From positions 9,952 to 73,951 of the IMG/VR virus record IMGVR_UViG_3300029466_000004: a DNA stretch of 64,000 bases. The stretch is one strand, 5' to 3'. The notes under the pieces were generated by a model. It did no database searches. It had not been told where the DNA came from and was given only the letters and a program-made list of their open reading frames with translations. Positions 9,907 to 60,400 of this stretch are shown piece by piece. Positions within the stretch are counted from its first letter, which is position 1. Each line of letters opens with the position of its first letter. The translations under genes and the position numbers were made by a program. Origin of the DNA: a virus (taxonomy: Duplodnaviria > Heunggongvirae > Uroviricota > Caudoviricetes).

Positions 9907-10278
9907 ATGAAAATTATTGACAGCAACGGCGTAGAAATCGCCACCCCCGACCTGACAAAAGGATACCTCAAGCCCGAGACCCAGACCATCCATCACGATG
10001 CTGTGGCGGGCGTGAAAGAGGTCAGCCACTACGAGTACAAGACATATCCCAACGGCGGCAAAGACCGCTGGAAGGTGGTGGACGTGCCCGGTGTGGCCGC
10101 AAAGGAAGCCTATGACGAAGAGGTGGAAGTGCAGCGGTATGTGCTGTACACCGCCGAAGAGCTGGCTGCACAGGAAAAGGCCCGCAAGGAAGCAGAAGAA
10201 AAGGCACAGTTGCCCACCGCAGAAGAGCGCCTTGCCGCTCTGGAAGCGGCTATGCTTGACCTGCTGGCCGCACAGTAA
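9907..10278 (+). CDS. hypothetical tail/lysis-module protein (XkdW-like position)
   Basis: ORF with RBS between the fibers and the lysis genes. Confidence 0.3.
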   Translation: MKIIDSNGVEIATPDLTKGYLKPETQTIHHDAVAGVKEVSHYEYKTYPNGGKDRWKVVDVPGVAAKEAYDEEVEVQRYVLYTAEELAAQEKARKEAEEKAQLPTAEERLAALEAAMLDLLAAQ

Positions 10279-18668: not shown

Positions 18669-18929
18669 TTATTCTTTCGGTTCGTCAGGAAGTGGCATCC
18701 AATGGGTTACATGATATAACACATTATCATCAATCAGTTGGGTTTCACTATTGTTTCCATAGAACGCATCCGTCAACACATCATCTGTATACCATTTTTC
18801 GCCTTTGAAGTCACCATAATAACCGAAAGTAACGCCCATCACTTTATCATAAATGATAATCTGAACGTACTTGTCTGGCATCTTATCTTTTACGCTAATC
18901 CAACCCATTCTCGCTCCTTTCTGCATCAT
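18669..18929 (-). CDS. DUF551-family phage protein
   Basis: C-terminal ...VTHWMPLPDEPKE motif. Confidence 0.5.
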   Translation of the reverse strand: MMQKGARMGWISVKDKMPDKYVQIIIYDKVMGVTFGYYGDFKGEKWYTDDVLTDAFYGNNSETQLIDDNVLYHVTHWMPLPDEPKE

Positions 18930-18951
18930 CTGCTCAATGTGCTACATCTGA

Positions 18952-20073
18952 CTATTTCAAGAAGCTATCATCAAACGTAGCATAATCGTCAAGGTCTGCA
19001 TCTTTCAAAATTGAATACATATAAGCGCCGGGGTCTTTTTCAATCCTATCAAGTCGCTCGCTGACAAGAATCCTGTATGCATTCTCAATGATGTTCACAA
19101 CAGCTTCTTTTTTCTTGTTGGGCTTGATGTTCGGATACTTCTCCGGCAATCTCTTTGCCACCAGCTTTGCGGTCAAGATACACTGGCTTTTAGACATCTC
19201 CGGCGCAATAGATGCCCAATCAACATCCTCGTATGCGCCGCTGCGGGGCTTTCTGGCAGGTCGTTGGCTCTTTGGAACATCTTTTAGCTCTACGCTTTCA
19301 ACCTCGTTAGCTTCCACGTCTATGACTGGCTCATTAGACTTGAAAGCTACATTGAACTTTACAGCAACCGCATTGCGACCTCTCATAACCTTGTCATATT
19401 CAACGCACAGGTCTGATACTTCGTTTATTTCAGCTACCGCAATATCAATGACACGCCGCCTAAGATGCTTGAACTCTTGATAGCTAGGTTCTCTTGCACC
19501 AAGCTGTTCCCTTAATCTATCCAACGTAATTTCGGGCTGGCTCACGCCACGTCCGATGAACTCTCGGAGAATTGAATACAGCAAAATGCTATACTGCGAT
19601 TTCATATTCGCTGTGTAGCGCAAGCGATACTTGACATATCCACGCTCTGCAATGTCGAAGAAAACGGGTTGTAGAAGTGGGTTACAGCACAACGACACAG
19701 TAATGTTCATCAAACTAGGTTCAAAATTTACAGTTGCTCTGCTGAACAGGGGATACAGGTCAAACGAGCCTGAACCGTCACCTCTAGGAACTTCAACAGA
19801 GTTGTCGATGAAATGCTTAACCTGTGCTTTCAAATTCCTAGAGTTGATTTTTAACCCTAAAAATTCGCAATATTCTTGTAACGTAAACTGAACCGTTGAA
19901 GTTTCGGGGTCTCTCGGATTGATACGGCTAAGATACACTTCAAGCAGCCGAAGCTCTCCTGCTGTATAGTCAGTGAACTTTGCCCAAACAAGCTGTCTGC
20001 TTTTTTCAACCAAGTTCCCGCCTTTAATATCAGACAATCCTATCACGCCTCCTCTCGTATAAGAGTATATCAC
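18952..20073 (-). CDS. replication initiator protein (plasmid RepA/Rep_3-like, winged-helix)
   Basis: 373 aa; N-terminal wH-like region; immediately downstream of an iteron array and AT-rich region. Confidence 0.55.
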   Translation of the reverse strand: MIYSYTRGGVIGLSDIKGGNLVEKSRQLVWAKFTDYTAGELRLLEVYLSRINPRDPETSTVQFTLQEYCEFLGLKINSRNLKAQVKHFIDNSVEVPRGDGSGSFDLYPLFSRATVNFEPSLMNITVSLCCNPLLQPVFFDIAERGYVKYRLRYTANMKSQYSILLYSILREFIGRGVSQPEITLDRLREQLGAREPSYQEFKHLRRRVIDIAVAEINEVSDLCVEYDKVMRGRNAVAVKFNVAFKSNEPVIDVEANEVESVELKDVPKSQRPARKPRSGAYEDVDWASIAPEMSKSQCILTAKLVAKRLPEKYPNIKPNKKKEAVVNIIENAYRILVSERLDRIEKDPGAYMYSILKDADLDDYATFDDSFLK

Positions 20074-20080
20074 AAACAGG

Positions 20081-20193
20081 TGTACAAATCAATAGCGAGT
20101 GTACACCTGTTTCCACTTCTTGTACACCTAACTGTCCACATTTTGTACACCCGTTTCCACAATCTGTACACCTATATCCATTTTTTGTACACC
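20081..20193. repeat. iteron array: TGTACA(C/A)C x6 at ~21-22 bp spacing (origin of the Rep replicon)
   Basis: copies at 20081, 20100, 20121, 20144, 20165, 20186, followed by an AT-rich stretch; further gtgtacaaaaagtgga copies at ~20388 and ~20558. Confidence 0.6.
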
Positions 20194-20605
20194 TCTTTAC
20201 ATTATATAAAACAAGACTATTAACAGGATTATAAAATAACTTCTACTAATAGCAGAAGAAGAAAATTTTCCACAAAATCTTTTCTTTCTCTCTTAAAAAG
20301 TGGAAAACGCAAAGCGAATACTACTAAATAAACAGCTGTTCAACATCCAAAAGGTTGAAGCGTTTAACGGTTAGCTTTACCTAACGTGTACAAAAAGTGG
20401 ATGAAAAACTTTTAATTCAATGCTATGGGGGACAGATTGACAAGCCAACCAATCGCAGACAATAGATTGACGGTAATTCGTTATTTATTCCGCACGAATG
20501 TTGTCGATTTACAGTTCATGGGGGACGGATTGACAAGGTAAATTTGCCCGATAGGTGTACAAAAAGTGGACAAAATGTTCTTCAAAAACTGCGATAATTC
20601 GACAA

Positions 20606-45893: not shown

Positions 45894-46120
45894 AGCATGA
45901 AACCCGTAAAATTGTCAGAACAGAGTTTGAAGCTGATTGAAACGTTGTGCGATTACACCGACAAGCCCGATATCCTCAATGCCATCGCAGATGCCTTGTA
46001 CTATGACGCAGATGAATTGAAGCGCAGGCTAAACCAGCTTGCGGAAGAAGTCAAATAAACAGTGTGGCTTATTTGTGAAGATGAATTTTAGCAAATAATT
46101 TTCTAAAACAACATCATAAA
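45890..46120. repeat. direct repeat, left copy (~85% identity to 47370-47600)
   Basis: alignable over the 53-aa ORF plus ~60 bp downstream. Confidence 0.6.
45897..46058 (+). CDS. 53-aa protein, copy 1 (within the left direct repeat flanking rtcB)
   Basis: MKPVKLSEQSLKLIETLCDYTDKPDILNAIADALYYDADELKRRLNQLAEEVK; paralog at 47377-47538. Confidence 0.4.
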   Translation: MKPVKLSEQSLKLIETLCDYTDKPDILNAIADALYYDADELKRRLNQLAEEVK

Positions 46121-46143
46121 ATAAAATTGGAAAGGAGAACACA

Positions 46144-47358
46144 TTGAAAGCAATTTACGGTAAATATGCGTCTGCAAAGGTTTTTACGGACAATATTGAA
46201 GATAAGGCATCCGAGCAGATTCTAACGCTTTGCAATCAGAGCTTTGTTGATGGATGCAAGATTCGCATTATGCCAGACGTTCATGCTGGCTCTGGGTGCG
46301 TAATTGGGTTTACGGCAGACTTGGGAAAGAAAGTTATTCCCAATATTGTCGGCGTTGACATTGGCTGCGGAATGCTTGTTGCTGAACTCGGAATTGAACA
46401 TATTGACCCGGAAAAACTGGACAAAGTGATTAGAGAACGAGTTCCGGCTGGAATGAATGTTCACGAATCGCAGAAAATGTCGGATGCTTTCCTCCGTCAG
46501 CTTGATTGCAAAGATAGCCTTCATAATGTTGACTGGATTCTTCGCAGCATGGGCACTTTGGGCGGCGGAAATCATTTTATCGAGCTGGACGAAGATGAAG
46601 AGAAAAACCAGTACCTTGTTATCCATACTGGAAGCAGGAATCTCGGTAAACAAGTTGCAGAATATCATCAAAACGTAGCAATTTCTAATATCAAAGGAAA
46701 GAACAAAAGAAAAGAAGCTACGGAACGACTGATTGAGGAACTGAAAAAGCAAGGCCGTGAACAGGAAATTTCGAAAAAAATCAAAGAGCTGGATGTTCAG
46801 TTCCCCGATATTCCGAATGAGCTTTGCTATCTTGAAGGGAAAGAACGTGATTCTTACCTTAACGATATGCGGATTTGTCAGGCATTTGCGAAAATGAATC
46901 GGGCAAGAATTATGCATACCATTTTAGACGGCGTTGGAATAAATTCTATACTGACCCATGCGTCCTTCTTTGAAACCGTTCATAACTATATTGATGAATC
47001 GGATGATATTATCCGAAAAGGCTCTGTATCCGCTAGAGATGGTGAGAAGCTGATTATTCCTCTTAATATGAGAGACGGAAGCCTTATCTGTGTTGGCAAG
47101 GGCAATCCTGATTGGAATTTCTCTGCTCCGCATGGAGCTGGTAGGCTGTATAGTAGAACAGCGGCTAAAAAAGCATTCAGCGTTGAAGAATATCAAAAGC
47201 AGATGAACGGAATTTACACTACCTCAGCCGATGAATCCACGTTAGATGAATGCCCGATGGCATATAAGCCAGCACAGGAGATTATCAACGCAATCTCCCC
47301 AACAGTTGATATTGTAAAACACATTAAGCCCATTTACAATTTCAAAGCGGGAGAATAA
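46144..47358 (+). CDS. rtcB: RtcB-family RNA 3'-phosphate ligase
   Basis: MPDVHAGSGCVIG, VGVDIGCGM, GGGNHFIELDED, HTGSRNLG, PHGAGR motifs; TTG start with GGAAAGGAG RBS. Confidence 0.85.
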   Translation: MKAIYGKYASAKVFTDNIEDKASEQILTLCNQSFVDGCKIRIMPDVHAGSGCVIGFTADLGKKVIPNIVGVDIGCGMLVAELGIEHIDPEKLDKVIRERVPAGMNVHESQKMSDAFLRQLDCKDSLHNVDWILRSMGTLGGGNHFIELDEDEEKNQYLVIHTGSRNLGKQVAEYHQNVAISNIKGKNKRKEATERLIEELKKQGREQEISKKIKELDVQFPDIPNELCYLEGKERDSYLNDMRICQAFAKMNRARIMHTILDGVGINSILTHASFFETVHNYIDESDDIIRKGSVSARDGEKLIIPLNMRDGSLICVGKGNPDWNFSAPHGAGRLYSRTAAKKAFSVEEYQKQMNGIYTTSADESTLDECPMAYKPAQEIINAISPTVDIVKHIKPIYNFKAGE

Positions 47359-47369
47359 AACCGAAAGGA

Positions 47370-47600
47370 AAACGACATGAAAACCGCAAAATTGTCAGAT
47401 CAAAGCTTGAAGCTCATTGAAACGTTGTGTGATTACACCAACAAGCCGGATATTCTCAATGCCATCGCGGACGCTTTGTACTATGATGCAAACGAGTTGA
47501 AACGCAGGCTCAACCAGCTTGCAGAAGAAGTCAAATAAACTGTGCAACCCATTTATTAAGATGGATTTTAGTAAATAATTTTCTGAAGTGAAATTATAAA
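47370..47600. repeat. direct repeat, right copy
   Basis: see 45890-46120. Confidence 0.6.
47377..47538 (+). CDS. 53-aa protein, copy 2 (within the right direct repeat)
   Basis: MKTAKLSDQSLKLIETLCDYTNKPDILNAIADALYYDANELKRRLNQLAEEVK. Confidence 0.4.
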   Translation: MKTAKLSDQSLKLIETLCDYTNKPDILNAIADALYYDANELKRRLNQLAEEVK

Positions 47601-47669
47601 ACCGAATATTTGATTTTTGTGCAGTTGTAGGCACTCTTTACATTTTCAGGTAGGGGGTGCCTATTTTTT

Positions 47670-49337
47670 ATGCAGCCAAAACAGTGCATTGCCATCATCA
47701 ACAGCATCAAAGCGTATGCAAAGCAGAATCCGACAGAAGCACAGGTCTACGAGGACTGGTTTCAAGCGGTCGTGAATTTGAGGGACGCTCTGTCGCAAGA
47801 CAAGCGGTTCGATGCCTACAAATATTCTGGCGAGTTGCGCTCTGTCTGTGCAACCATGATGGGCAAGATGAAAACAGGTGAGGACGTGGCAAAAGTCTAT
47901 GACATTATCAGCCGAACGTACCTGTTTGAAGCAAAGGATGTATTTGACAGCTATTGCATCTACCTTGAATGGAACCGTGCGCCGGAAAAGAAGTTCTATC
48001 AGCCGAGAAGAAAGGTTCTTCTGACGTTGGTTCGTGACCTAGAGGACTTGTTTTTTCATCGTGTAGAATTTCTGGGAGTAAGTCAACCTCCGAGAACTGG
48101 AAAAAGTACGCTCTGTATATTTTTTATCACATGGCTGATGGGCAACCGCCCTGACGTTGCATCGGTTATGAGCGGACATTCCGACAAGCTGACCAATGGC
48201 TTCTATGGAGAAGTTCTGTCTATCATCACTGACCCCGTGACCTATAACTGGGGCAAAATCTTCCCTGACGTTCAGCTTGTAGATAAGAGTGCAAAAGACG
48301 AAAGCGTTGACCTGAACCGCAAAAAGCGTTTTCCCACTTTGACTTGCCGCTCCATTGGCGGTACGCTGACTGGCGCAGTTGAAATCGGCGAGGGCGGCGT
48401 TCTGTACAGTGATGACCTGATTGAGGACTTGGAGGAAAGCCTGAATGTTGAGCGTTTGAACAACAAATACGATGCCTACTTGAACCAGCTAAAAGACCGT
48501 AAAAAGCAGGGTGCATTGGAGCTGATGGTCGGCACACGCTGGAACGTGCTTGACCCTCTTGGACGCATCCAGAACCAGTATGCAGACAACCCAAAGTACA
48601 GATTTCGGGTGATTCCTGCGGTGGATGAGAACGGACACAGCAACTTCAATTATGACTATGGCGTTGGCTTTGACGATTCCTACTATGCCGACATGAAAGC
48701 CAGCATTGACGATGCAACATGGTGGGCAAAGTACATGGGTAAGCCCTATGTGCGTGAAGGCCTGCTGTTCCCTGCTGACGAACTGCGGTACTTCAACGGT
48801 GTTCTGCCTGACGGGGAACCTGATCGGAAGCTCATGGTCATGGATATTGCATGGGGTGGCGGTGACTTTACCGCCTGTCCTATCGCTTATGTGTACGGCG
48901 ATGCCGTGTTCATTCCTGACCTTGTGTTCAATAATGGCGATAAGACCTTGACCAGACCGGAAGTCGTGGGCAAAATCATCCAGCACAAAATCAATGTGGT
49001 GCGTGGCGAAGCCAACAACGGCGGCGATGAATACTGTGACGTAGTGGATAGCCAGCTCCGGCAGCAGGGCTATCACTGCTCTGTTCGCAGCCAACGTGCG
49101 CCCAGTGGTCAAAGCAAGCTGTCCAGAATTATCCAGTATGCGCCGGACATCAAGCGGTTTTACTTCCTTGACGAGAAACACCAGTCGAAAGAGTACAAGG
49201 CGTTCATGGAGCAGGTGACGATGTTTACGCAGCTTGGCAAAGTTTCGCACGATGATGCACCGGATAGTCTGGCACAGCTTGCCGATGAACTTTACAACGG
49301 AATCAGTAAAATCGAGCCTGTCAAGCGTCCATTTTGA
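47670..49337 (+). CDS. terL: terminase large subunit
   Basis: GVSQPPRTGKST Walker A; 555 aa; precedes the portal. Confidence 0.85.
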   Translation: MQPKQCIAIINSIKAYAKQNPTEAQVYEDWFQAVVNLRDALSQDKRFDAYKYSGELRSVCATMMGKMKTGEDVAKVYDIISRTYLFEAKDVFDSYCIYLEWNRAPEKKFYQPRRKVLLTLVRDLEDLFFHRVEFLGVSQPPRTGKSTLCIFFITWLMGNRPDVASVMSGHSDKLTNGFYGEVLSIITDPVTYNWGKIFPDVQLVDKSAKDESVDLNRKKRFPTLTCRSIGGTLTGAVEIGEGGVLYSDDLIEDLEESLNVERLNNKYDAYLNQLKDRKKQGALELMVGTRWNVLDPLGRIQNQYADNPKYRFRVIPAVDENGHSNFNYDYGVGFDDSYYADMKASIDDATWWAKYMGKPYVREGLLFPADELRYFNGVLPDGEPDRKLMVMDIAWGGGDFTACPIAYVYGDAVFIPDLVFNNGDKTLTRPEVVGKIIQHKINVVRGEANNGGDEYCDVVDSQLRQQGYHCSVRSQRAPSGQSKLSRIIQYAPDIKRFYFLDEKHQSKEYKAFMEQVTMFTQLGKVSHDDAPDSLAQLADELYNGISKIEPVKRPF

Positions 49338-49376
49338 TTAAAAACACAATATATTGTGTTCGCTGGGTCTATTTAT

Positions 49377-49406
49377 TTGATTTCACCACTTGACAAGGCT
49401 TATAAT
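49377..49406 (+). promoter_or_regulatory. sigma-A-like promoter (TTGATT-18-TATAAT) driving the non-coding/tRNA region
   Basis: ttgatt tcaccacttgacaaggct tataat. Confidence 0.4.
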
Positions 49407-49551
49407 GTACGCAGGAAGTTTTGCAGCTTCCCTTAAAGGAATAGCTTTCACGCGGGGTTTTGTCATTTTACTCGCGTGCGTGTCAACAAGCATATTCCTC
49501 CTTTCACCGGTGGAGGTTTTCTCACTCTTTCGCCTTCACCGGGCTTTATAT

Positions 49552-49632
49552 GTTGCGTTTCCAATTGTAAGGGGAATGCCAGCCTGTCTCCCCCACGGCT
49601 GGCAAGCAACGGTTCGATTCCGTTACGCAGCA
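49552..49632 (+). tRNA. tRNA-like element with canonical T-arm (GGTTCGATTCC) and acceptor pairing but oversized anticodon arm
   Basis: acceptor GTTGCGT/ACGCAGC; T-arm AACGG TTCGATT CCGTT; anticodon region folds as a 6-bp stem with a 12-nt loop. Confidence 0.25.
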
Positions 49633-49765
49633 CAACGATTCACTTCTGTTTTCATGGAAATTTTCCTTTTACAACCTCCAATCGTTATTCCCGGCTCTCG
49701 ATGAAATGGGTTTTGTGACATTTTACCATTTCAAAGAGCAACGATGAATTAAGCCGGGTACATGA

Positions 49766-49842
49766 CACAGAGTGGAGCAGTCTTGTAGCTCGTCGGGTTC
49801 ATAGCCCGAAGGTCGGTGGTCCAAATCCATCTTCTGTGCCCA
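49766..49842 (+). tRNA. tRNA with CAT anticodon (Met/fMet/Ile2-type), CCA encoded
   Basis: hand-folded cloverleaf: acceptor CACAGAG/TTCTGTG, D-stem GAGC/GCTC, anticodon stem TCGGG/CCCGA with loop TTCATAG, T-stem GGTGG/CCATC, discriminator C plus CCA; atypical D- and T-loops (no G18G19). Confidence 0.5.
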
Positions 49843-49993
49843 TCAGCGATTTGCTCCAGTCGGGGCAATCGTGGCTTTTGACACCCGACAAGTCAGAGCC
49901 TAGCACGGCTGGAAGTGCGAACAGTTTCCCAGTAGCTTCTGACAGGTCTGTGCTCAACAGCCTGTTTCCAGAAATTCAGCGAAAGGAGCGCTC

Positions 49994-50176
49994 ATGCTAG
50001 TTAGAATCTGTTGCCCTTGTATTAGGCAAAACCCAATCTATAAGAACGTCCGCTGCAATCGCTATCTTGGTGAAGTAGACGGACGATACCATTTCAAGTG
50101 CGACAGATGCAAGGGCGTTATCGAAGGAGACACAAGGGAAGGATGGGTAAAAATTATCCATCCACCGGAAAAGTAA
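49994..50176 (+). CDS. small zinc-ribbon protein
   Basis: CCPC...CNRY...CDRCKG. Confidence 0.3.
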   Translation: MLVRICCPCIRQNPIYKNVRCNRYLGEVDGRYHFKCDRCKGVIEGDTREGWVKIIHPPEK

Positions 50177-50267
50177 ATAGCTTTTGAAGCGCAGTTTTGG
50201 CGCAGTGAGATAGACCTTAACAGGTTTGTCTTGCTGCGCTTTTTATTTTGCCGGAAAGGAGGAACGC

Positions 50268-51770
50268 ATGGCTGAGTATCAGATGGTCGTTGGCGGTTTT
50301 TTGAATAATCCGCTGACCGGACGCAGACCGATTGAAACGCCGGAGACGGAAATCAATCGGGAGAACGTGCTGAAAGTGGTCATGGGCAAGGCAGAGCCTA
50401 TTCATCTGCTGAACAAGAATGAGATTCGCTTCTTGCACAATTACTACTTGGGCAGTCAGCCTGTTCTCCTCCGCACGAAGGAATATCACGCTGAAATCAC
50501 GAACCGCATTGTAGAGAACCACGCCAACGAGTGTGTGGGCTTCTACACAGGCTATATGAGCGGTACGCCGTGCTCTTATGTGCGGTCTGAAACGGCAACA
50601 GGTGACGGCGAGGAAATCGCCCGGCTGTCTAACGCCTTGCAGTATGAGGGCAAGGACGCGCTTGATCGGCGGCTCTGGCAGTGGATGTTGGAGTGCGGAC
50701 AGGGATACCGCATTGTTCTTCCTGACAAGGGGTATGGCGGTAACTACCCGGACGAAACACCCCTGCTGGTGGACGTTCCCGACCCGGACATGGCGTATGT
50801 GATTTACAACTCCGGCATCGGTCACAAGCCGATTGCCAACGTGCTGCACATTCCACGCAATTATCAGAACGACTTGAACGACCTGATTTGCGTGTACACG
50901 CCAAACCAGTACTTTGAAATCGACAACGGCAAGGTCACAAAATCGGAGAATCATTCTCTTGGAATGCTGCCGATGGTCGAATACAAGCTGAACCCGGAGC
51001 GTATGGGTCTGTTTGAACCGGCTATCCCCGTGCTGAATGCCATCAACGACCTTGAAAGCAACCGGCTGGACGGCGTGGCGCAGTTCATTCAGTCCATCAT
51101 GGTGTTTACGAACTGCCTTGTGGACGAGGATGCGCTCAACAAGGTTAAGAAACTTGGCGCAATGTGTCTGAAGTCCACCGCTGGTCTGCCTGCTTCTGTC
51201 TCACAGATTGCAAACGAGCTTGACCAGCAGCAGAGCCAGACCCTGCTTGATTCCATGTTGAACGTGTACCGCAGCCTGACTGCCATGCCTAGTGCAACCG
51301 GTAGCGAGAATGCAACGTCTGACAACGTGGGCGCAGTTATCGTCCGTAATGGCTGGAATCACACCGAAGCAAGGGCTCAGCAGTACGAGAATATGTTCAA
51401 GTTCTCGGAACGTCAAAGCCTGTCTGTGATGCTCAAAATTCTGCGTGATACGGCTGGTTCTAAGCTGATGGCAAGCGACATCAATATCAAACTGCCCCGC
51501 CGTCAGTACGATAACCAGCAGAGCAAGGTTCAGATTTTTGCACAGATGCTTAATCAGAGCATTGACCCGCAGTTGGCGTTTACTACGCCCGGTCTGTTCC
51601 CTGACCCGCAGGCTGCTTACGAAATGAGCAAGCCCTTCCTGATTGCCGCCGGAAAGCTAGGCAAGGATGGGAAAGCACCGAAGCCGCAGGAACAGCCCAC
51701 AGACCATATTGTTGACACCAACAAAATGGTCGGCGAACAGACTAATGCAAAGGAAGGAGAGCAAAAATGA
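50268..51770 (+). CDS. portal protein
   Basis: ~500 aa ORF immediately after TerL with AAGGAGG RBS; followed by scaffold and capsid. Confidence 0.7.
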   Translation: MAEYQMVVGGFLNNPLTGRRPIETPETEINRENVLKVVMGKAEPIHLLNKNEIRFLHNYYLGSQPVLLRTKEYHAEITNRIVENHANECVGFYTGYMSGTPCSYVRSETATGDGEEIARLSNALQYEGKDALDRRLWQWMLECGQGYRIVLPDKGYGGNYPDETPLLVDVPDPDMAYVIYNSGIGHKPIANVLHIPRNYQNDLNDLICVYTPNQYFEIDNGKVTKSENHSLGMLPMVEYKLNPERMGLFEPAIPVLNAINDLESNRLDGVAQFIQSIMVFTNCLVDEDALNKVKKLGAMCLKSTAGLPASVSQIANELDQQQSQTLLDSMLNVYRSLTAMPSATGSENATSDNVGAVIVRNGWNHTEARAQQYENMFKFSERQSLSVMLKILRDTAGSKLMASDINIKLPRRQYDNQQSKVQIFAQMLNQSIDPQLAFTTPGLFPDPQAAYEMSKPFLIAAGKLGKDGKAPKPQEQPTDHIVDTNKMVGEQTNAKEGEQK

Positions 51771-55758: not shown

Positions 55759-56156
55759 TTGATTATTTCAATTCCATCTACACGGCTGTTGCTAAGGAAC
55801 TGCGAAAGCAAGTTCCCGGTATCTTCGTTACTAGCGAAATTAGTGACAGCCCTGTTAAGAGGTTTCCGTGTGTGCAGATAGAGGAAAATAACAATTTGCC
55901 TGTGCATCTTGATTCTGCCGATCACAGCAAGTACGCCGCCGTTTCCCTGCGTGTGCGTGTCTACTCTAACAAGAACCCCGGGCGCAGTGCAGAAGCACGC
56001 TTTATTGTTGGAATCGTGGATTCTGTTCTCGAACCCAAAAAGTTCTATCGCAAATCGTTTGCCCCGTTGAATGGGCTGTACAACAATTCCGTCTATCGGA
56101 TTGATTGCAGCTATGGGGCAACAATCGGAGAGGACGGAATGATTTACCGAAACTAA
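55755..56156 (+). CDS. tail terminator / tail completion protein
   Basis: immediately upstream of the major tail protein; C-terminus homologous to 1-179. Confidence 0.4.
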   Translation: MIDYFNSIYTAVAKELRKQVPGIFVTSEISDSPVKRFPCVQIEENNNLPVHLDSADHSKYAAVSLRVRVYSNKNPGRSAEARFIVGIVDSVLEPKKFYRKSFAPLNGLYNNSVYRIDCSYGATIGEDGMIYRN

Positions 56157-56171
56157 GGAGGTAAACATTCT

Positions 56172-56609
56172 ATGAGTACTGCTATCTCCGGTCTGAATAC
56201 CACCCTGTATTGTGGTGCTACCGAGTCTGCATTGACGAAGTTGTGTGACATCAAGGATGTCCCGGATATGATTTCCGATCCGAACCTTCTGGATGCCACC
56301 ACCCTGTCTGATCCGATGCAGAAGCAGATTTTTGGTATTAACCAGTCCGATATTAAGGCGTTTACCGCAAACTACAACAAGGAAGATTACGAATCGGTTC
56401 AGAAAGCTGGCTACGATGAATCTGCCGAAGAGAACCCCGACAAGTACTATGCAATTAAGATGCAGGACGGCTCCGGATTCACTTGGCAGGGTATGCATCA
56501 GGTTGGTCTGTCCGGCTTTGGCGTGGATGAGGTTGTGGAAATGACCATCAACTGCATTTTCCACACCAAGCCGAAGTTCGTTAAGGCGCTGACCATCAAC
56601 GGCGGCTAA
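56172..56609 (+). CDS. major tail protein (second copy)
   Basis: ~85% aa identity to 195-632. Confidence 0.55.
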   Translation: MSTAISGLNTTLYCGATESALTKLCDIKDVPDMISDPNLLDATTLSDPMQKQIFGINQSDIKAFTANYNKEDYESVQKAGYDESAEENPDKYYAIKMQDGSGFTWQGMHQVGLSGFGVDEVVEMTINCIFHTKPKFVKALTINGG

Positions 56610-56693
56610 ACCGCAAAAATCGAATCAATCAAACCGGGCAGAACTGAACATTGGATTTGGTTCTGCCCCTATTTATAAAGGAGAGCATTTATT

Positions 56694-57041
56694 ATGGCTG
56701 CAAAGGTTATCAATTATCATTCCCCCGATGGCAAGAACACTTATGAACTAACTTTCACCCGTGACAGCGTGGAAGCCGCCGAACGTGCAGGTTTTCAGAT
56801 TGGTCAGTACACCCAGATGATCAATCTGCTGTCCAACTCCCGTGCTCTGTTCTACGGCGCTTTCATTGCACGGAACAAGGGCATCAAGCGCAAGGACGTT
56901 GACGAGATGTTCCAGCATACCGAGGAGAAGGAAGAACTGATGGGCATTTTGCTTGAGATGTTCATGGATGCTTCTAAGTCTCTGCTGGCGACTGACACTG
57001 AGGACAAGACCGCAAAAAACGCAACGTGGGAGATTGTGTAA
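56694..57041 (+). CDS. tail assembly chaperone (gpG-like)
   Basis: homolog of 717-1064; conserved slippery AAAAAAC. Confidence 0.6.
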   Translation: MAAKVINYHSPDGKNTYELTFTRDSVEAAERAGFQIGQYTQMINLLSNSRALFYGAFIARNKGIKRKDVDEMFQHTEEKEELMGILLEMFMDASKSLLATDTEDKTAKNATWEIV

Positions 57042-57448
57042 CCGCACAATCTCAAGAATCAGACGGAGAGGGAGAACCGTTTTCCTTCTCCAAGCTGTTC
57101 CACGATGTAGAAGCCTATTACATCTCCATCGGCATGACCTACGACCAGTTCTGGTACGGCGATGTCTGGCTGGCTAAGGTATACCGTGACGCAGAGGAGC
57201 TGCGAGAACGCAGAGCCAATGCAGAAGCATGGAGAAACGGTTTTTACATGGCATCTGCGCTTTCCTCTACGGTTGGCAATATGTTCCGAAAAAAAGGGTC
57301 TAGCCCCATCAAGTACATGGATAGACCGATTCCCCTTACTCAAAAGGAGAAAGACGAGTATGAATACCAACGCGCAGTTGAAGCGCAGGAGCGAATCAAG
57401 AGAATGATGTTCTCTATGATGGAAAGTGATGGTGGTAGCGATGGCTGA
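57026..57448 (+). CDS. tail assembly chaperone -1 frameshift extension (gpT-like)
   Basis: homolog of 1049-1471. Confidence 0.5.
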   Translation: MGDCVTAQSQESDGEGEPFSFSKLFHDVEAYYISIGMTYDQFWYGDVWLAKVYRDAEELRERRANAEAWRNGFYMASALSSTVGNMFRKKGSSPIKYMDRPIPLTQKEKDEYEYQRAVEAQERIKRMMFSMMESDGGSDG

Positions 57449-60400
57449 TGTTGATATTACGAGCTTATCCGTAGAAATCTCTGCGGAATCGCAGGGCGCA
57501 GAGCTTAATATCGACAAGCTCGCTACCGCCATTTCTAATTTGCGGACAAAGGGCAACGTGACAAAGGTCGTCAACAGCCTTGATAAGCTGTCCGCTTCCA
57601 TTTCTGCGCTGAAACAGGCGTCTGCTGGCCTGTCTGGGCTGGACAAAATCACCAGCTTTTTGAATGGAATTTCCAATGTCAACACGACTGCAAGCACAAA
57701 GAGCATCAACACGGTCGTAAATGCAATCAAGAAGATTCCTACGGCAGTCTCCGGCTTGAACGGCGTGGACTTCTACTCCATGTCTGGAAGCATTACTCAG
57801 CTCACCAACGCTTTGGCTCCGCTGTCTATTTTGGACGCATCAAACCTTAAAGCTCTTGGCAGCGCTTTCAATGCGATCGGAAAAGTTCCTGATCTGACCG
57901 ACAAGCTGAAAGCAACAGACCTTGATTCTTTTGCAAGCTCTTGTCAGAAGATTTCTGCTGCCCTTACTCCCCTTGCATCTCAGCTTGACAAGGTTGGCAA
58001 CGCTTTTGCAAAGCTGCCGCCGCAGTTGAGCAAGGTGGTCACACAGGCAAACCGTGTGACTGCTGCCAACGAACGACAGAAAAAAAGCTATCTCAGCCTG
58101 TCTAACCAGCTGAATGGTTTCATGCTGTCTGCGAAAAAGCTGGTTTCGCTGAAAGCTATTGCTGAGTATCTTGGCAAAGCTGTTGCGAAATTCAATGACT
58201 TTTACGAAGCGACAGACCTGTTTCATAATGCTATGGGCAATTTGAGCGGTGAAGCAGATACGCTCATTAGCAAGATGCAAGGCCTGCTTGGAGTTGACCC
58301 GACCAAAGCGATGACCTACATGGCCACCATCCAGAGCTTAGGTACTTCGTTTGGTTTGGCCAGCGACAAAGCTTACGTTCTGTCTAAGAACCTGACTCAG
58401 CTTGCCTATGACGAAGGTTCCTATTGGAACAAGGACGTTGCAGAAACCTTTACCGCAATGTCTTCCGCAATCTCTGGCGAGATTGAGCCTATTCGCCGTT
58501 TGGGCGTTGACTTGTCTCAAGCACGGTTACAGCAGGAGCTTCTTGCTTTAGGCTTTAACAAACAGGTTTCTAGTCTGTCTCAGGCAGATAAGGCGGTTCT
58601 GCGTTACATTGCCATTATGAAGCAGACTGCCAACGTGCAGGGTAATCTTGCGCAGACCATCCAAAGCCCTGCGAACCAGATTAAGATTCTGAAAGCTCAA
58701 CTTGATATGTTGGCAAAGTCTGTTGGTTCTCTGCTCTACCCTGCCATGAAATCCATTCTTCCTCCGCTGATTGCCGCCGTGCAGCTCATTCGAGAGTTCG
58801 TTGAATGGGTGGCAAAGCTGATGGGTGTGAAGGTCGTGTTCACTGATTTCACCAAGAGCGCTGACAGTGTTGGCGGTATCGGCGACGCAATGGATAATAC
58901 AGCCGATTCGACAAAGAAAGCCGCCAAAGCCCTCAAGGACTACACGATGGGCTTTGATGAATTGAACATCATTGACCCCACACAGGGAAGCTCTGGCTCT
59001 GGCAGCGGCGCATCTGCTGGCAACATCTTGGGCGATGTAGACCTGTCCGGCTACGATATGTTCAAGCAGTACAATGAAGAGTTTGCAAAGCAGATTGACG
59101 CTATAAAGCAGAAAATCAAAGATATGCTGCCGGTTATTGGCGCTATTTCTGCTGCACTCGCATTGTGGAAAATCACCAATTTCCTGACGAACATTGCAAC
59201 AGCAATTTCTAAAATGACGGATTTGCAAAAGTTGGCTCTTTCGATTGCAACAGTTGTTGTCGAAGCATCGTTAGTATTCAGTTTTGCAAAAGGCTACGCA
59301 TCTAGTGGAAATCCTCTTGAGCTTTTAGGCGAAGTGGTGTCTGCTGCGTTTGGCTCTTTTGTTCTTTGGCGCACAATGGGCGCGGATGGCGTTACGCTTG
59401 GCATGGGCATCGCTTTTGTGGCGAGCCTTGCAGGTCTTACTTATGCACTTGGTACTGGCGAAGCCAATCTTGGCGATGCAAGCACATGGATTCAGGCTGC
59501 TTTAACAACGGCATTCGGTTCTATTACTGGTATCACACTGCTCACCAATCTTGGAGCAGCCTCTGGTACAGCCGCAACGCTTTCTATCGGTCTTGCAGGT
59601 CTTATTACCTTTGCGGGAATTACATTCTCGCTTGGTGAAAAGCTGAAAGAATTTCCCGTTCTTGACACCATCATCACTGCTCTGATGGGGATTTTTGGCG
59701 GTGCTGCTGGTGCTGGCGTTGCATTGCTTGTTGGTGCAAGCCTTCCTGTTGCTGGGGCCGTTGCCGCTGCTGGTGTCGGTATTGGCCTTGTTCTTCACTG
59801 GGCTGGTATCAAATGGGGCGCTAAAGAGAGCGGCGAAAAAACAGATGCTGCCGCAGAAGCCGACATTAAAATGCATTATGTCGAAAATGTTTTTGAGCAG
59901 CGTATCGATGCCATCAAACAAATCATTGTCACTAAGTGGAACGCTGTCATTGACTTTATGACTTCTCTGCCTGAAAAGGTTGGGAACATCGTAAGTAGCA
60001 TTGGCGAGTGGTTCAGCTCTCTTCCTGAAAAAATCGGCTATGCCCTTGGCTTTGCCGTCGGCAAAATCGGGGAGTGGGTCGAAAACATGATCGTTACTGT
60101 AACAACCGAAGTTCCAAAAATCGTTTCGTCTGTTGTTAAGTTTTTTGAAGAACTGCCGGGGAATATTTGGACTGCAATTCTCAAAGCTCTTGACGTTATT
60201 TCTAAATGGCGGGAGCGCATGATAGCTTTCGTTGTTATTGAAGTTCCAAAAATCATTTCGTCTATTGTCGGCGAGTTCAAAAAGCTTCCTGACAAATTGA
60301 GAAAGCTTGGAAAATTCATCTGGGATGGCCTAATCAACGGCCTAAAAGATGCATGGAGTACCGTTACAAATGGTATTAAGAGCTTCACTGATGGCTTTGT

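Follow-up and report, generated by a model that had tools for sequence, protein, structure and literature searches.

Introduction

Phage tRNAs, among them T5 tRNAs that counter PARIS and retron effectors, and phage tRNAs carrying mutations in their anticodon loop have been described (PMC11464382, PMC11555353, PMC10264068), phage tRNAs having recently been shown to neutralise tRNA-cleaving defence. Bacterial Y RNAs (YrlA) have D and T arms resembling those of tRNAs but do not decode; some of them are substrates of RNase P and of the CCA-adding enzyme. Phages contain such RNAs, and in Salmonella they share an operon with rtcBA (PMC4201824). The present work concerns a 64,000-nucleotide stretch of DNA (hereafter the window) from a virus of the class Caudoviricetes (IMG/VR record IMGVR_UViG_3300029466_000004, positions 9,952 to 73,951) and, within it, a unit inserted between terL and portal that includes a tRNA gene preceded by a non-canonical tRNA-like element, hereafter called TL1. 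To our knowledge, a conserved recombining phage locus of non-decoding tRNA-shaped RNAs has not been described before. Our preferred reading, which we hold tentatively and with some reserve, is that this unit could be an accessory RNA operon (moron) yielding tRNA-shaped RNAs, in which TL1 would be a tRNA scaffold displaying a C-rich effector loop.

Like the counter-defence tRNAs, these elements are phage-borne and their locus shows a fast turnover; moreover, the second tRNA position of the unit (hereafter slot 2) is occupied here by a bona fide tRNA(CAU), whose loop differs from that of the cellular initiator. However, the counter-defence tRNAs are functional, cleavage-resistant tRNAs, whereas TL1 and two forms of slot 2 found in relatives (types 4 and 5, see below) cannot decode, and no defence system was identified here. 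As for Y RNAs, TL1 is also a non-decoding RNA with tRNA-like D and T arms, but it has free acceptor ends, a closed arm and no Ro-binding stem; no Rfam match to Y RNAs was obtained at E ≤ 10 and no Ro60/TROVE domain was detected among the open reading frames (ORFs) scanned.

Other RNAs resemble TL1 in part. Ponchon and Dardel reportedly engineered in 2007 tRNA scaffolds for recombinant RNA, where a payload takes the place of the anticodon arm and the scaffold is to provide processing and nuclease resistance. TL1 has the same intact acceptor/D/T framework and an anticodon arm swapped for a longer stem with a foreign loop; however, those scaffolds are man-made, whereas we only infer that TL1 is their natural equivalent. 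In the C-rich-loop small RNAs (sRNAs) of Gram-positive bacteria (RsaE/RoxS type; 6C RNA, RF01066), the C run carried by a hairpin loop is the likely working motif. TL1 also carries a C run in a loop, but embedded in a cloverleaf, and the 6C model reaches only 20.9 bits, against a gathering score of 47 (E = 4.9). RNAs C and D of phage T4 and tRNA-Other of Bacillus cereus are tRNA-shaped, non-canonical RNAs encoded in tRNA clusters, whose roles are unclear or regulatory; they are likened to TL1 by description only, the arm of TL1 being much larger and TL1 being located in a recombining cassette. GOLLD and ROOL are large non-coding RNAs that lie beside tRNAs in phages and prophages. Here, ~580 nt of structured non-coding RNA also lie beside a tRNA in a phage of Bacillota-like type, but this region resolves into separate hairpins and cloverleaves, and the GOLLD and ROOL models of Rfam gave no match at E ≤ 10 in 49000-50300. 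Overall, Rfam searches at the gathering score and at E ≤ 10 returned the tRNA itself and chance-level matches only (6C, snoRNAs and others), and full-text literature searches found no description of the TL1 element. TL1 is best filed under the tRNA-like non-coding RNAs of mobile elements, and the tRNA of the window is a member of the ordinary phage tRNA class with atypical details.

TL1, a tRNA-like element conserved in related phages

49552-49636, + strand: TL1 (acceptor 49552-58/49625-31; D-arm 49559-62/49572-75; T-arm 49608-12/49620-24; discriminator A49632; trailer CAAC).

A first-pass annotation, made from the letters of the window alone, had described at this place an element with a tRNA-type T-arm, a paired acceptor and a 12-nt loop, and all three are found as described. 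TL1 displays a 7-bp acceptor (GTTGCGT/ACGCAGC), a T-arm AACGG-TTCGATT-CCGTT and an anticodon-like arm composed of a 7-bp stem (49578-84/49597-603) and of the 12-nt loop TGTCTCCCCCAC (49585-96), which includes a tract of five C (C5 tract, 49590-94). It has a U at position -1, a 12-bp (7 + 5) acceptor/T stack and a canonical T-loop, and it does not encode CCA. The pattern GTTGCGT...ACGCAGCACAA combined with a T-loop was found at ~180 loci in related phage contigs, corresponding to 76 distinct sequences.

Taken alone, the folding energy of TL1 is weak evidence (z = -1.75). Among 56 distinct sequences, 92.2% of the pair cells of the cloverleaf are paired, compared to 34-45% in slid controls, with the acceptor paired in 100% of the sequences and the T stem in 99.6%. 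Eight pairs are altered on both sides, and neither the observed pairing nor the observed covariation score was reached by any of 500 shuffles. The compensatory changes include A-U to G-C exchanges, in either direction, at two pairs of the T stem and a C-G/U-A exchange at a third one, a C-G/U-A exchange in the D stem and the replacement of CC/GG by AA/UU, or the reverse, in the anticodon-like arm. Since pairing largely exceeds that of the controls and compensatory changes affect the D, anticodon-like and T stems, this alignment indicates that TL1 is a real RNA structure under selection at the RNA level. No variation was seen in the acceptor (seven pairs), in A73 or in the CAAC trailer, not even in 82 loci that were picked by TerL similarity alone. 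A covariance model built from TL1 scores 106.9 bits on the + strand and 12.9 bits on the - strand, and the G-U pairs are consistent with the + strand only; TL1 is therefore assigned to the + strand. This model found no second copy of TL1 in the window. Five classes of arms (A to E) were distinguished, giving elements of 80-88 nt; CCCCC is retained in four of them, within differing loop contexts.

TL1 shares with tRNAs the 7-bp acceptor, the 5-bp T stem and a UUCRANY T-loop (TTCGATT, TTCAATT or TTCAAAC), but not the 5-bp anticodon stem with a 7-nt loop (here 7 bp and 10-21 nt) nor the two-nucleotide 8-9 linker, its D stem starting at position 8 or 9. The software check proposed in the first-pass annotation had a divided outcome: ARAGORN and Rfam both call the tRNA located downstream and both reject TL1, which received no ARAGORN call and, in the window, no match to the Rfam tRNA model (RF00005) at E ≤ 10. 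In relatives, TL1 elements of classes A, B, C and E also remain below the gathering score of this model, the sole class D contig included in this test having an acceptor variant that lies outside the TL1 pattern. This rejection results from the start of the D stem at position 8 or 9, the 7-bp arm, the loop of 10-21 nt and the unencoded CCA.

Other identities were considered for TL1 and rejected. Two ORFs (49390-49704 and 49476-49718) overlap it; however, the length differences between relatives are not multiples of three and whole segments are replaced, so that this region is not considered as protein-coding. An intron-containing tRNA that would be spliced by RtcB is dismissed since there is no bulge-helix-bulge and no group I intron match, the loop is of 10-21 nt and rtcB is mostly absent from relatives. 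Known frameshift-suppressor tRNAs have 8-nt loops; a suppressor with an expanded anticodon was rejected on anatomical grounds, a 12-nt loop on a 7-bp stem being far from these. Elsewhere in the window, two copies of ATGGGGGACNGATTGACAAG (20425-20444 and 20518-20537) have as reverse complement CUGUCCCCCAU, which resembles the TL1 loop CUGUCUCCCCCAC; this may be coincidence. An all-against-all search for column covariation over a 660-nt region was swamped by clade structure and therefore useless.

The tRNA of slot 2 and its alternative forms

49766-49842, + strand: tRNA with a CAT anticodon (ARAGORN, tRNA-Met(cat); Rfam RF00005).

This gene is the single tRNA that ARAGORN detects in the window, and it scores 48.1 bits with RF00005 (gathering score, 29; E = 3.4e-07 for the window as a whole). 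Its complete cloverleaf, its encoded CCA (after discriminator C73), its GGG/CCC anticodon stem and its TCCAAAT T-loop, all reported from first sight of the sequence, are confirmed. The tRNA matches all four initiator tRNA genes of Escherichia coli, with 88% identity over nt 5-63 to the tRNA-Met gene located upstream of rimP, which we take to be metY. The alignment of its D-loop (AGUCUUGUA) with metY qualifies the claim that G18G19 is lacking: G18 is replaced by U18, but G19 is kept. The elbow contacts G18-psi55 and G19-C56 are thus not both available, since the tRNA has U18 G19 and a UCCAAAU T-loop (C55). This C55 is private to the present genome, all related copies having TTCAAAT.

The differences from metY are U18, U32, G38, C55, the paired C1-G72 and the discriminator C73. 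Among the characteristics of initiators, the tRNA has the three G:C pairs at 29-31:39-41 (UCGGG/CCCGA) and A11:U24 (D-stem GAGC/GCUC), but a Watson-Crick C1-G72 pair and a discriminator C stand in place of the unpaired 1x72 (C1xA72) and of A73. This comparison suggests that it derives from an initiator tRNA and lacks the 1x72 mismatch that defines bacterial initiators. Six alternative types occupy this slot in relatives:

Slot type 1: elongator-like tRNA(CAU), the majority form, whose acceptor is almost identical to that of TL1.
Slot type 2: initiator-derived tRNA, as in the window, with CAU or, in some relatives, UAU.
Slot type 3: second initiator-like type.
Slot type 4: initiator-like cloverleaf with a UUA triloop at the end of its anticodon arm (51.4 bits with the Rfam tRNA model).
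Slot type 5: form with a GAAA tetraloop.
Slot type 6: form with an extended arm.

Types 4 and 5 therefore retain the cloverleaf and are devoid of anticodon loop. The type-2 body carries a TAT anticodon in six loci (L044, L061, L062, L072, L075 and L076), for which ARAGORN predicts a tRNA-Ile. Another IMG/VR contig (L096) harbours, downstream of TL1, an extra tRNA-Trp(cca) beside a variant tRNA-Met in the slot.

The resemblance between TL1 and the type-1 tRNA raises the question of whether the locus is an ordinary phage tRNA gene accompanied by a duplicate in decay, the tRNA(CAT) supplementing decoding and TL1 being a type-1 tRNA pseudogene with six of the seven acceptor pairs in common. The acceptor of TL1 (GUUGCGU/ACGCAGC-A) is indeed close to that of type 1 (GUUGCAU/AUGCAGC-A), and the tRNA of the window is itself mildly degenerate (U18, private C55), with the lowest Rfam score among the slot-2 copies scored (48.1 bits versus 51.4-59.7). 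However, TL1 is kept in essentially all of the ~180 loci, with compensatory changes and a conservation above that of the flanking genes, and all five arm classes retain a closed stem of the 7-bp type. Furthermore, ATA codons are rare in the phage (3.6 per 1000) and its ATG use is ordinary, so that there is no evident codon demand. We consider such a decay very improbable.

Organization of the unit

49377-49406, + strand: promoter of the sigma-70/sigma-A type (-35 TTGATT at 49377-82, 18-nt spacer, -10 TATAAT at 49401-06).
49414-49475, + strand: 5′ leader hairpins H1 (49414-18/49427-31) and H2 (49452-56/49471-75), from RNAalifold on 44 representative sequences.
49495-49505, + strand: CU-rich motif UUCCUCCUUUC, core CUCCUUUC, upstream of H3; the core is retained in every leader allele and the flanks differ.
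49507-49542, + strand: hairpin H3 (11-bp stem 49507-17/49532-42, CU-rich 14-nt loop), 9 nt upstream of TL1.
49675-49758, + strand: spacer domain, directly upstream of the tRNA (CCUCC at 49675-79; 7-bp stem S2, 49690-96/49752-58, enclosing S3, 49697-708/49727-38).
49898-49993, + strand: 3′ leader (hairpins 49902-37 and 49941-66; ribosome-binding site of a small ORF).
49994-50176, + strand: zinc-ribbon ORF, 60 aa (MLVRICCPC...RYLGEVDG...KCDRC...).
50199-50251, + strand: intrinsic terminator (19-bp stem and U-run), directly before the ribosome-binding site and the ATG (~50268) of portal.

A promoter driving an RNA unit had been proposed from the window, in which a scan with the promoter consensus stays by itself at chance level (one site found for 1.0 expected). 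Comparison of relatives makes the case: none of 146 distinct sequences, strongly diverged alleles included, departs from TTGAYT (49377-82) or TAnAAT (49401-06), although the 18-nt spacer does vary; an inner TTGACA at 49391 is not conserved. We infer a transcription start near 49413, and the transcript of ~840 nt would lie between this conserved promoter and the conserved intrinsic terminator. In relatives, the latter consists of a 19-20-bp hairpin (-32 to -39 kcal/mol) followed by UUUUUAUUUU, with a median identity of 96%. The portal gene follows terL almost directly, without any such unit, in relatives whose TerL is ~51% identical. Because it has its own conserved promoter and terminator and its site is empty in these relatives, the segment 49377-50251 (~875 bp) is a self-contained insertion, i.e., a moron. 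The interval 49377-49842, initially delimited as a non-coding unit, is a genuine RNA unit but corresponds to roughly the first half of the insertion, which continues to 50251 with a 60-aa ORF and hence is not purely non-coding.

In the leader, H1 is almost invariant and H2 shows GC/AU and CG/UA changes in both directions. At least four unrelated stem sequences were found for H3 (CCGGUGGAGG, CCCGCGACAG, CCGGCGAAUG and CCCAGCAAUGG), each forming 10-11 bp (-17 to -20 kcal/mol). The block conservation of the spacer domain is 0.93-0.94, and RNAalifold reveals pair changes in S3 at 49704:49731 (CG/UG/AU), 49707:49728 (UA/AU) and 49708:49727 (GC/AU). Both tRNA-shaped elements are thus preceded by a CU-rich motif and by a hairpin domain with compensatory changes, an arrangement that looks like a tandem pair of modules. 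The column identity of the 3′ leader (95-98%) exceeds that of the flanking genes, and its hairpins display a few compensatory changes (e.g., UA/CG at 49910:49931). An intact zinc-ribbon ORF was found in 169 loci; its two alleles, of 60 and 62 aa, have Cys knuckles and a RYLGEV[DE]G motif in common. It matches no Pfam or PHROG family; a Com-like identity, suggested by resemblance, is therefore not claimed. Upstream of the unit, before the terL start, a hairpin (TAGGCAC...GTGCCTA, 47630-47669) with a U-run and an AGGGGG ribosome-binding site is conserved, and it is invariant across the TL1 classes.

This organization bears on two other explanations. The first one, that the tRNA-like element is an attP-type fragment, i.e., a partial host tRNA gene carried by the phage and serving as integration site, was among the suggestions of the first-pass annotation. 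It could account for a T-arm and an acceptor 3′ strand that are tRNA-like and invariant in sequence, but it appears hardly credible: (i) TL1 is a full cloverleaf whose T stem varies by compensated pairs, unlike a DNA crossover site identical to a host gene, (ii) it belongs to a unit that starts with a promoter and ends with a terminator, (iii) no integrase domain was detected in the ~40 ORFs scanned, and (iv) a Rep3 initiator, iterons and ParA indicate a plasmid-like maintenance.

According to the second explanation, the unit would act in cis as a leader or as punctuation: the tRNA shapes would be cleavage signals for RNase P and RNase Z, the hairpins would be regulatory, and together they would control the zinc-ribbon ORF and the portal/late operon through stability, translation or terminator read-through. 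The anticodon would then be irrelevant and could decay freely. The unit is indeed located at the head of the structural genes, with two hairpins after the putative transcription start, a leader conserved at 95-98% before the ORF and a strong terminator before portal; furthermore, slot 2 tolerates triloop, tetraloop and extended anticodon arms, as if shape alone mattered. However, in type-1 alleles of slot 2 the CTCATAA/T loop has remained intact despite many compensated changes in the stems, which points to selection for decoding, and a cleavage signal would need neither the invariance of the acceptor sequence nor the C5 tract found in TL1. Moreover, portal is expressed in distant relatives that lack such a unit. 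On balance, a purely cis-acting role seems rather improbable. Were the unit merely a processing signal and an ordinary tRNA, it would still be a clean example of an RNA-gene moron.

Exchange of alleles among relatives

The five TL1 classes, the six slot types and the two ORF alleles combine in many ways across relatives. While terL and portal are uniformly ~91% identical to those of the window, the segments of the unit that can be aligned with the window show higher values for TL1 (98.8%), the 3′ leader (96.6%) and the terminator (96.2%), and others cannot be aligned at all: this is the case for TL1 in 30, for the tRNA in 62 and for the ORF in 36 of 81 relatives. Since each segment is either highly conserved or unalignable on flanks of ~91% identity, the pattern, as far as these alignments tell, is that of discrete alleles exchanged by recombination at conserved junctions.

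The rtcB cassette and a second small-RNA cassette

46130-47365, + strand: rtcB cassette, outside the unit (RtcB ORF 46144-47358; Pfam RtcB, 2.1e-62; PHROG tRNA splicing ligase).
12272-12535, + strand: second small-RNA cassette, between a promoter-like -10 at 12272-80 (TGGTATAAT, as read in the sequence) and a hairpin resembling a terminator.

A partnership between the tRNA-like element and the nearby rtcB had been envisaged. The gene is nearby in the present genome, but it belongs to a separate cassette, flanked by direct repeats of ~240 bp with paralogous 53-aa ORFs (45897-46058 and 47377-47538), and the proposal is weakened by its distribution: rtcB is present in 13 of 82 relatives and missing from the other 69. 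It is also lacking in the contig that matches the terL-portal spacer of the window with 100% identity across 663 compared bases (49338-50000). The cassette seems to have been gained, and because it is absent from most relatives and from the contig with the identical spacer, any cooperation with the unit is optional.

The second cassette contains a tRNA-like element (12337-12407) that scores 44.5 bits with the Rfam tRNA model but on which ARAGORN is silent, its anticodon region being degenerate and C-rich; related copies likewise have scrambled C-rich arms. The ends of the cassette 12272-12535 are conserved. In most relatives, its cargo consists of hairpins of 51-58 nt or is absent, the tRNA-like cargo being a minority allele found here and in a few relatives. 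The similarity initially noticed between the loop of this element and that of TL1 holds loosely, since in both the top half of a tRNA is conserved and a C-rich arm is degenerate, but does not extend to homology of sequence, the TL1 model giving just 17.7 bits. These data suggest that the two elements share a common theme and do not form a sequence family.

Possible roles of the unit

In the mechanism that we propose, the moron would have been inserted between terL and portal in one abundant human-gut phage-plasmid lineage, where it would serve as a rapidly evolving module for interaction with the host, at the level of tRNA or translation biology. Both tRNA-shaped RNAs would be cut from the transcript by RNase P and RNase Z of the host, and the CCA-adding enzyme would complete TL1; this release is proposed because of the 12-bp acceptor/T stack, the canonical T-loop, the U at -1 and the absence of an encoded CCA, an anatomy that also suits the earlier suggestion of a processed sRNA. 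TL1 would not decode: it would be a scaffold whose anticodon arm is replaced by a 7-bp stem and an enlarged loop showing the C5 tract, the tRNA top half ensuring processing and stability and the C-rich loop being the working end of a stable trans-acting RNA. A tRNA scaffold with a payload is suggested by the contrast between the fixed framework and the variable arm, together with the conservation of the C5 tract. The loop would most likely bind a G-rich partner, either a Shine-Dalgarno-like stretch of RNA or a host protein; runs of five G (G5) occur at several start sites of the phage, including that of terL. Slot 2 would provide a Met/initiator-type tRNA whose anticodon loop is altered (U32 and G38 here) or, in some relatives, deleted. 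The parallel cassette 12272-12535, which swaps small hairpins with a tRNA-like element carrying a C-rich arm, supports this reading.

Several observations weigh against it. TL1 class D has no C5 tract, and no target covarying with the TL1 loop was found; the only nearby G5 run, in the ribosome-binding site of terL, is invariant, lies inside its own hairpin and would form only 5 bp with the loop. The anticodon-less variants of slot 2 carry no payload and are not explained by a scaffold, and most slot-2 alleles are ordinary tRNA(CAU) genes, so that the unit may in part be no more than a tRNA gene. Lastly, the reassortment of alleles is evidence of recombination and does not show which selective agent drives the exchange.

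The main rival to a tRNA scaffold with a C-rich loop is that the unit acts as a decoy or sponge for tRNA-targeting immunity, which we consider unlikely. TL1 and the anticodon-less forms of slot 2 would then bait nucleases, transferases or sensors that read the body of tRNAs, intact slot-2 tRNAs would replace cleaved Met or initiator tRNA and RtcB, where present, would reseal cut tRNAs. Baiting would explain the anticodon-less forms better, and the conservation of the C5 tract worse, than a scaffold does. It agrees with the conservation of the tRNA top half next to a scrambled or deleted anticodon region at two loci, with the mosaic turnover of alleles, typical for loci involved in arms races, and with the adjacency of rtcB in this genome. 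Furthermore, type 2 departs from the E. coli initiator at positions 32 and 38 of the loop, and position 38 lies next to the site at which VapC is reported to cleave initiator tRNA. There are also documented cases of phage tRNAs overcoming PARIS and retron effectors (PMC11464382, PMC11555353, PMC10264068). However, a pure shape decoy has no need for a C5 tract, yet this tract is kept in four of five classes. As for the decoy for anticodon nucleases put forward in the first-pass annotation, a 12-nt loop on a 7-bp stem poorly mimics a 7-nt anticodon loop, so that a decoy would rather address factors reading the tRNA body. Moreover, the distribution of rtcB, absent from 69 of 82 relatives, is independent of that of the unit.

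The tRNA scaffold displaying a C-rich loop can be integrated in a broader proposal, which is conceivable but rather doubtful: a very common human-gut phage-plasmid lineage might carry a new class of RNA effectors, namely natural tRNA scaffolds with a payload loop in place of the anticodon arm, or with this arm removed (slot-2 triloop and tetraloop), exchanged as cassettes and acting in trans against tRNA-directed immunity or on host translation. TL1 is a concrete candidate for a natural tRNA-scaffolded small RNA. Besides, >500 gut-virome contigs combine a near-constant background with naturally occurring alleles of the arm (five classes), of the slot (six types) and of the ORF (two), a series that makes the use of an anticodon-less tRNA shape directly testable.

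Genome, lineage and host

The phage genome covers ~56 kb within the window. RtcB (46144-47358) is followed by TerL (47670-49337), an SPP1-type portal (from ~50268) and an E-type capsid protein (Pfam, PHROG), and the genome also encodes an HTH repressor, ERF and DnaB. It includes plasmid-type genes encoding a Rep3 initiator and ParA, as well as iterons. Four iteron-like repeats of 21-22 bp (TGTACACC...) are located at 20100-20194, upstream of the Rep3 initiator gene, which ParA adjoins (region 17883-20073, - strand). Since these plasmid functions are accompanied by no integrase domain among the ~40 ORFs scanned, the genome looks like that of a phage-plasmid, judging from gene content; no plasmid match was found for this phage.

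More than 590 IMG/VR contigs carry a TerL relative. In the 80 best IMG/VR matches, the identity of the TerL protein is 98-100%, and nearly all of these 80 contigs come from a single large metagenome dataset; the GenBank relatives come from human faeces. The closest cultured phage is Clostridium phage Maintenon (TerL identity of 52%). Among genome contigs, TerL relatives were found at 61-67% identity only, in a metagenome-assembled genome (MAG) of Bacillota and in a MAG of Bacteroidales, both devoid of the unit. The sigma-A-like promoter, the strong Shine-Dalgarno sites and the intrinsic terminators suggest that the host is probably a member of Bacillota.

Positions 2-1637 of the window are repeated at 55979-57614 with 89% identity, and 2164-2686 at 58138-58660 with 81% identity. 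As the start of the window recurs ~56 kb downstream at these identities only, the window extends beyond a single ~56-kb genome into another, related copy, which could reflect tandem or related genomes or an assembly join. Short C-rich tandem repeats, corresponding to runs of five or six G on the - strand, are clustered at 38404-38565. Finally, a match to RAGATH-5 (RF02685, typed as ribozyme) was found at 40206-40256 on the - strand, with 53.9 bits for a gathering score of 50.

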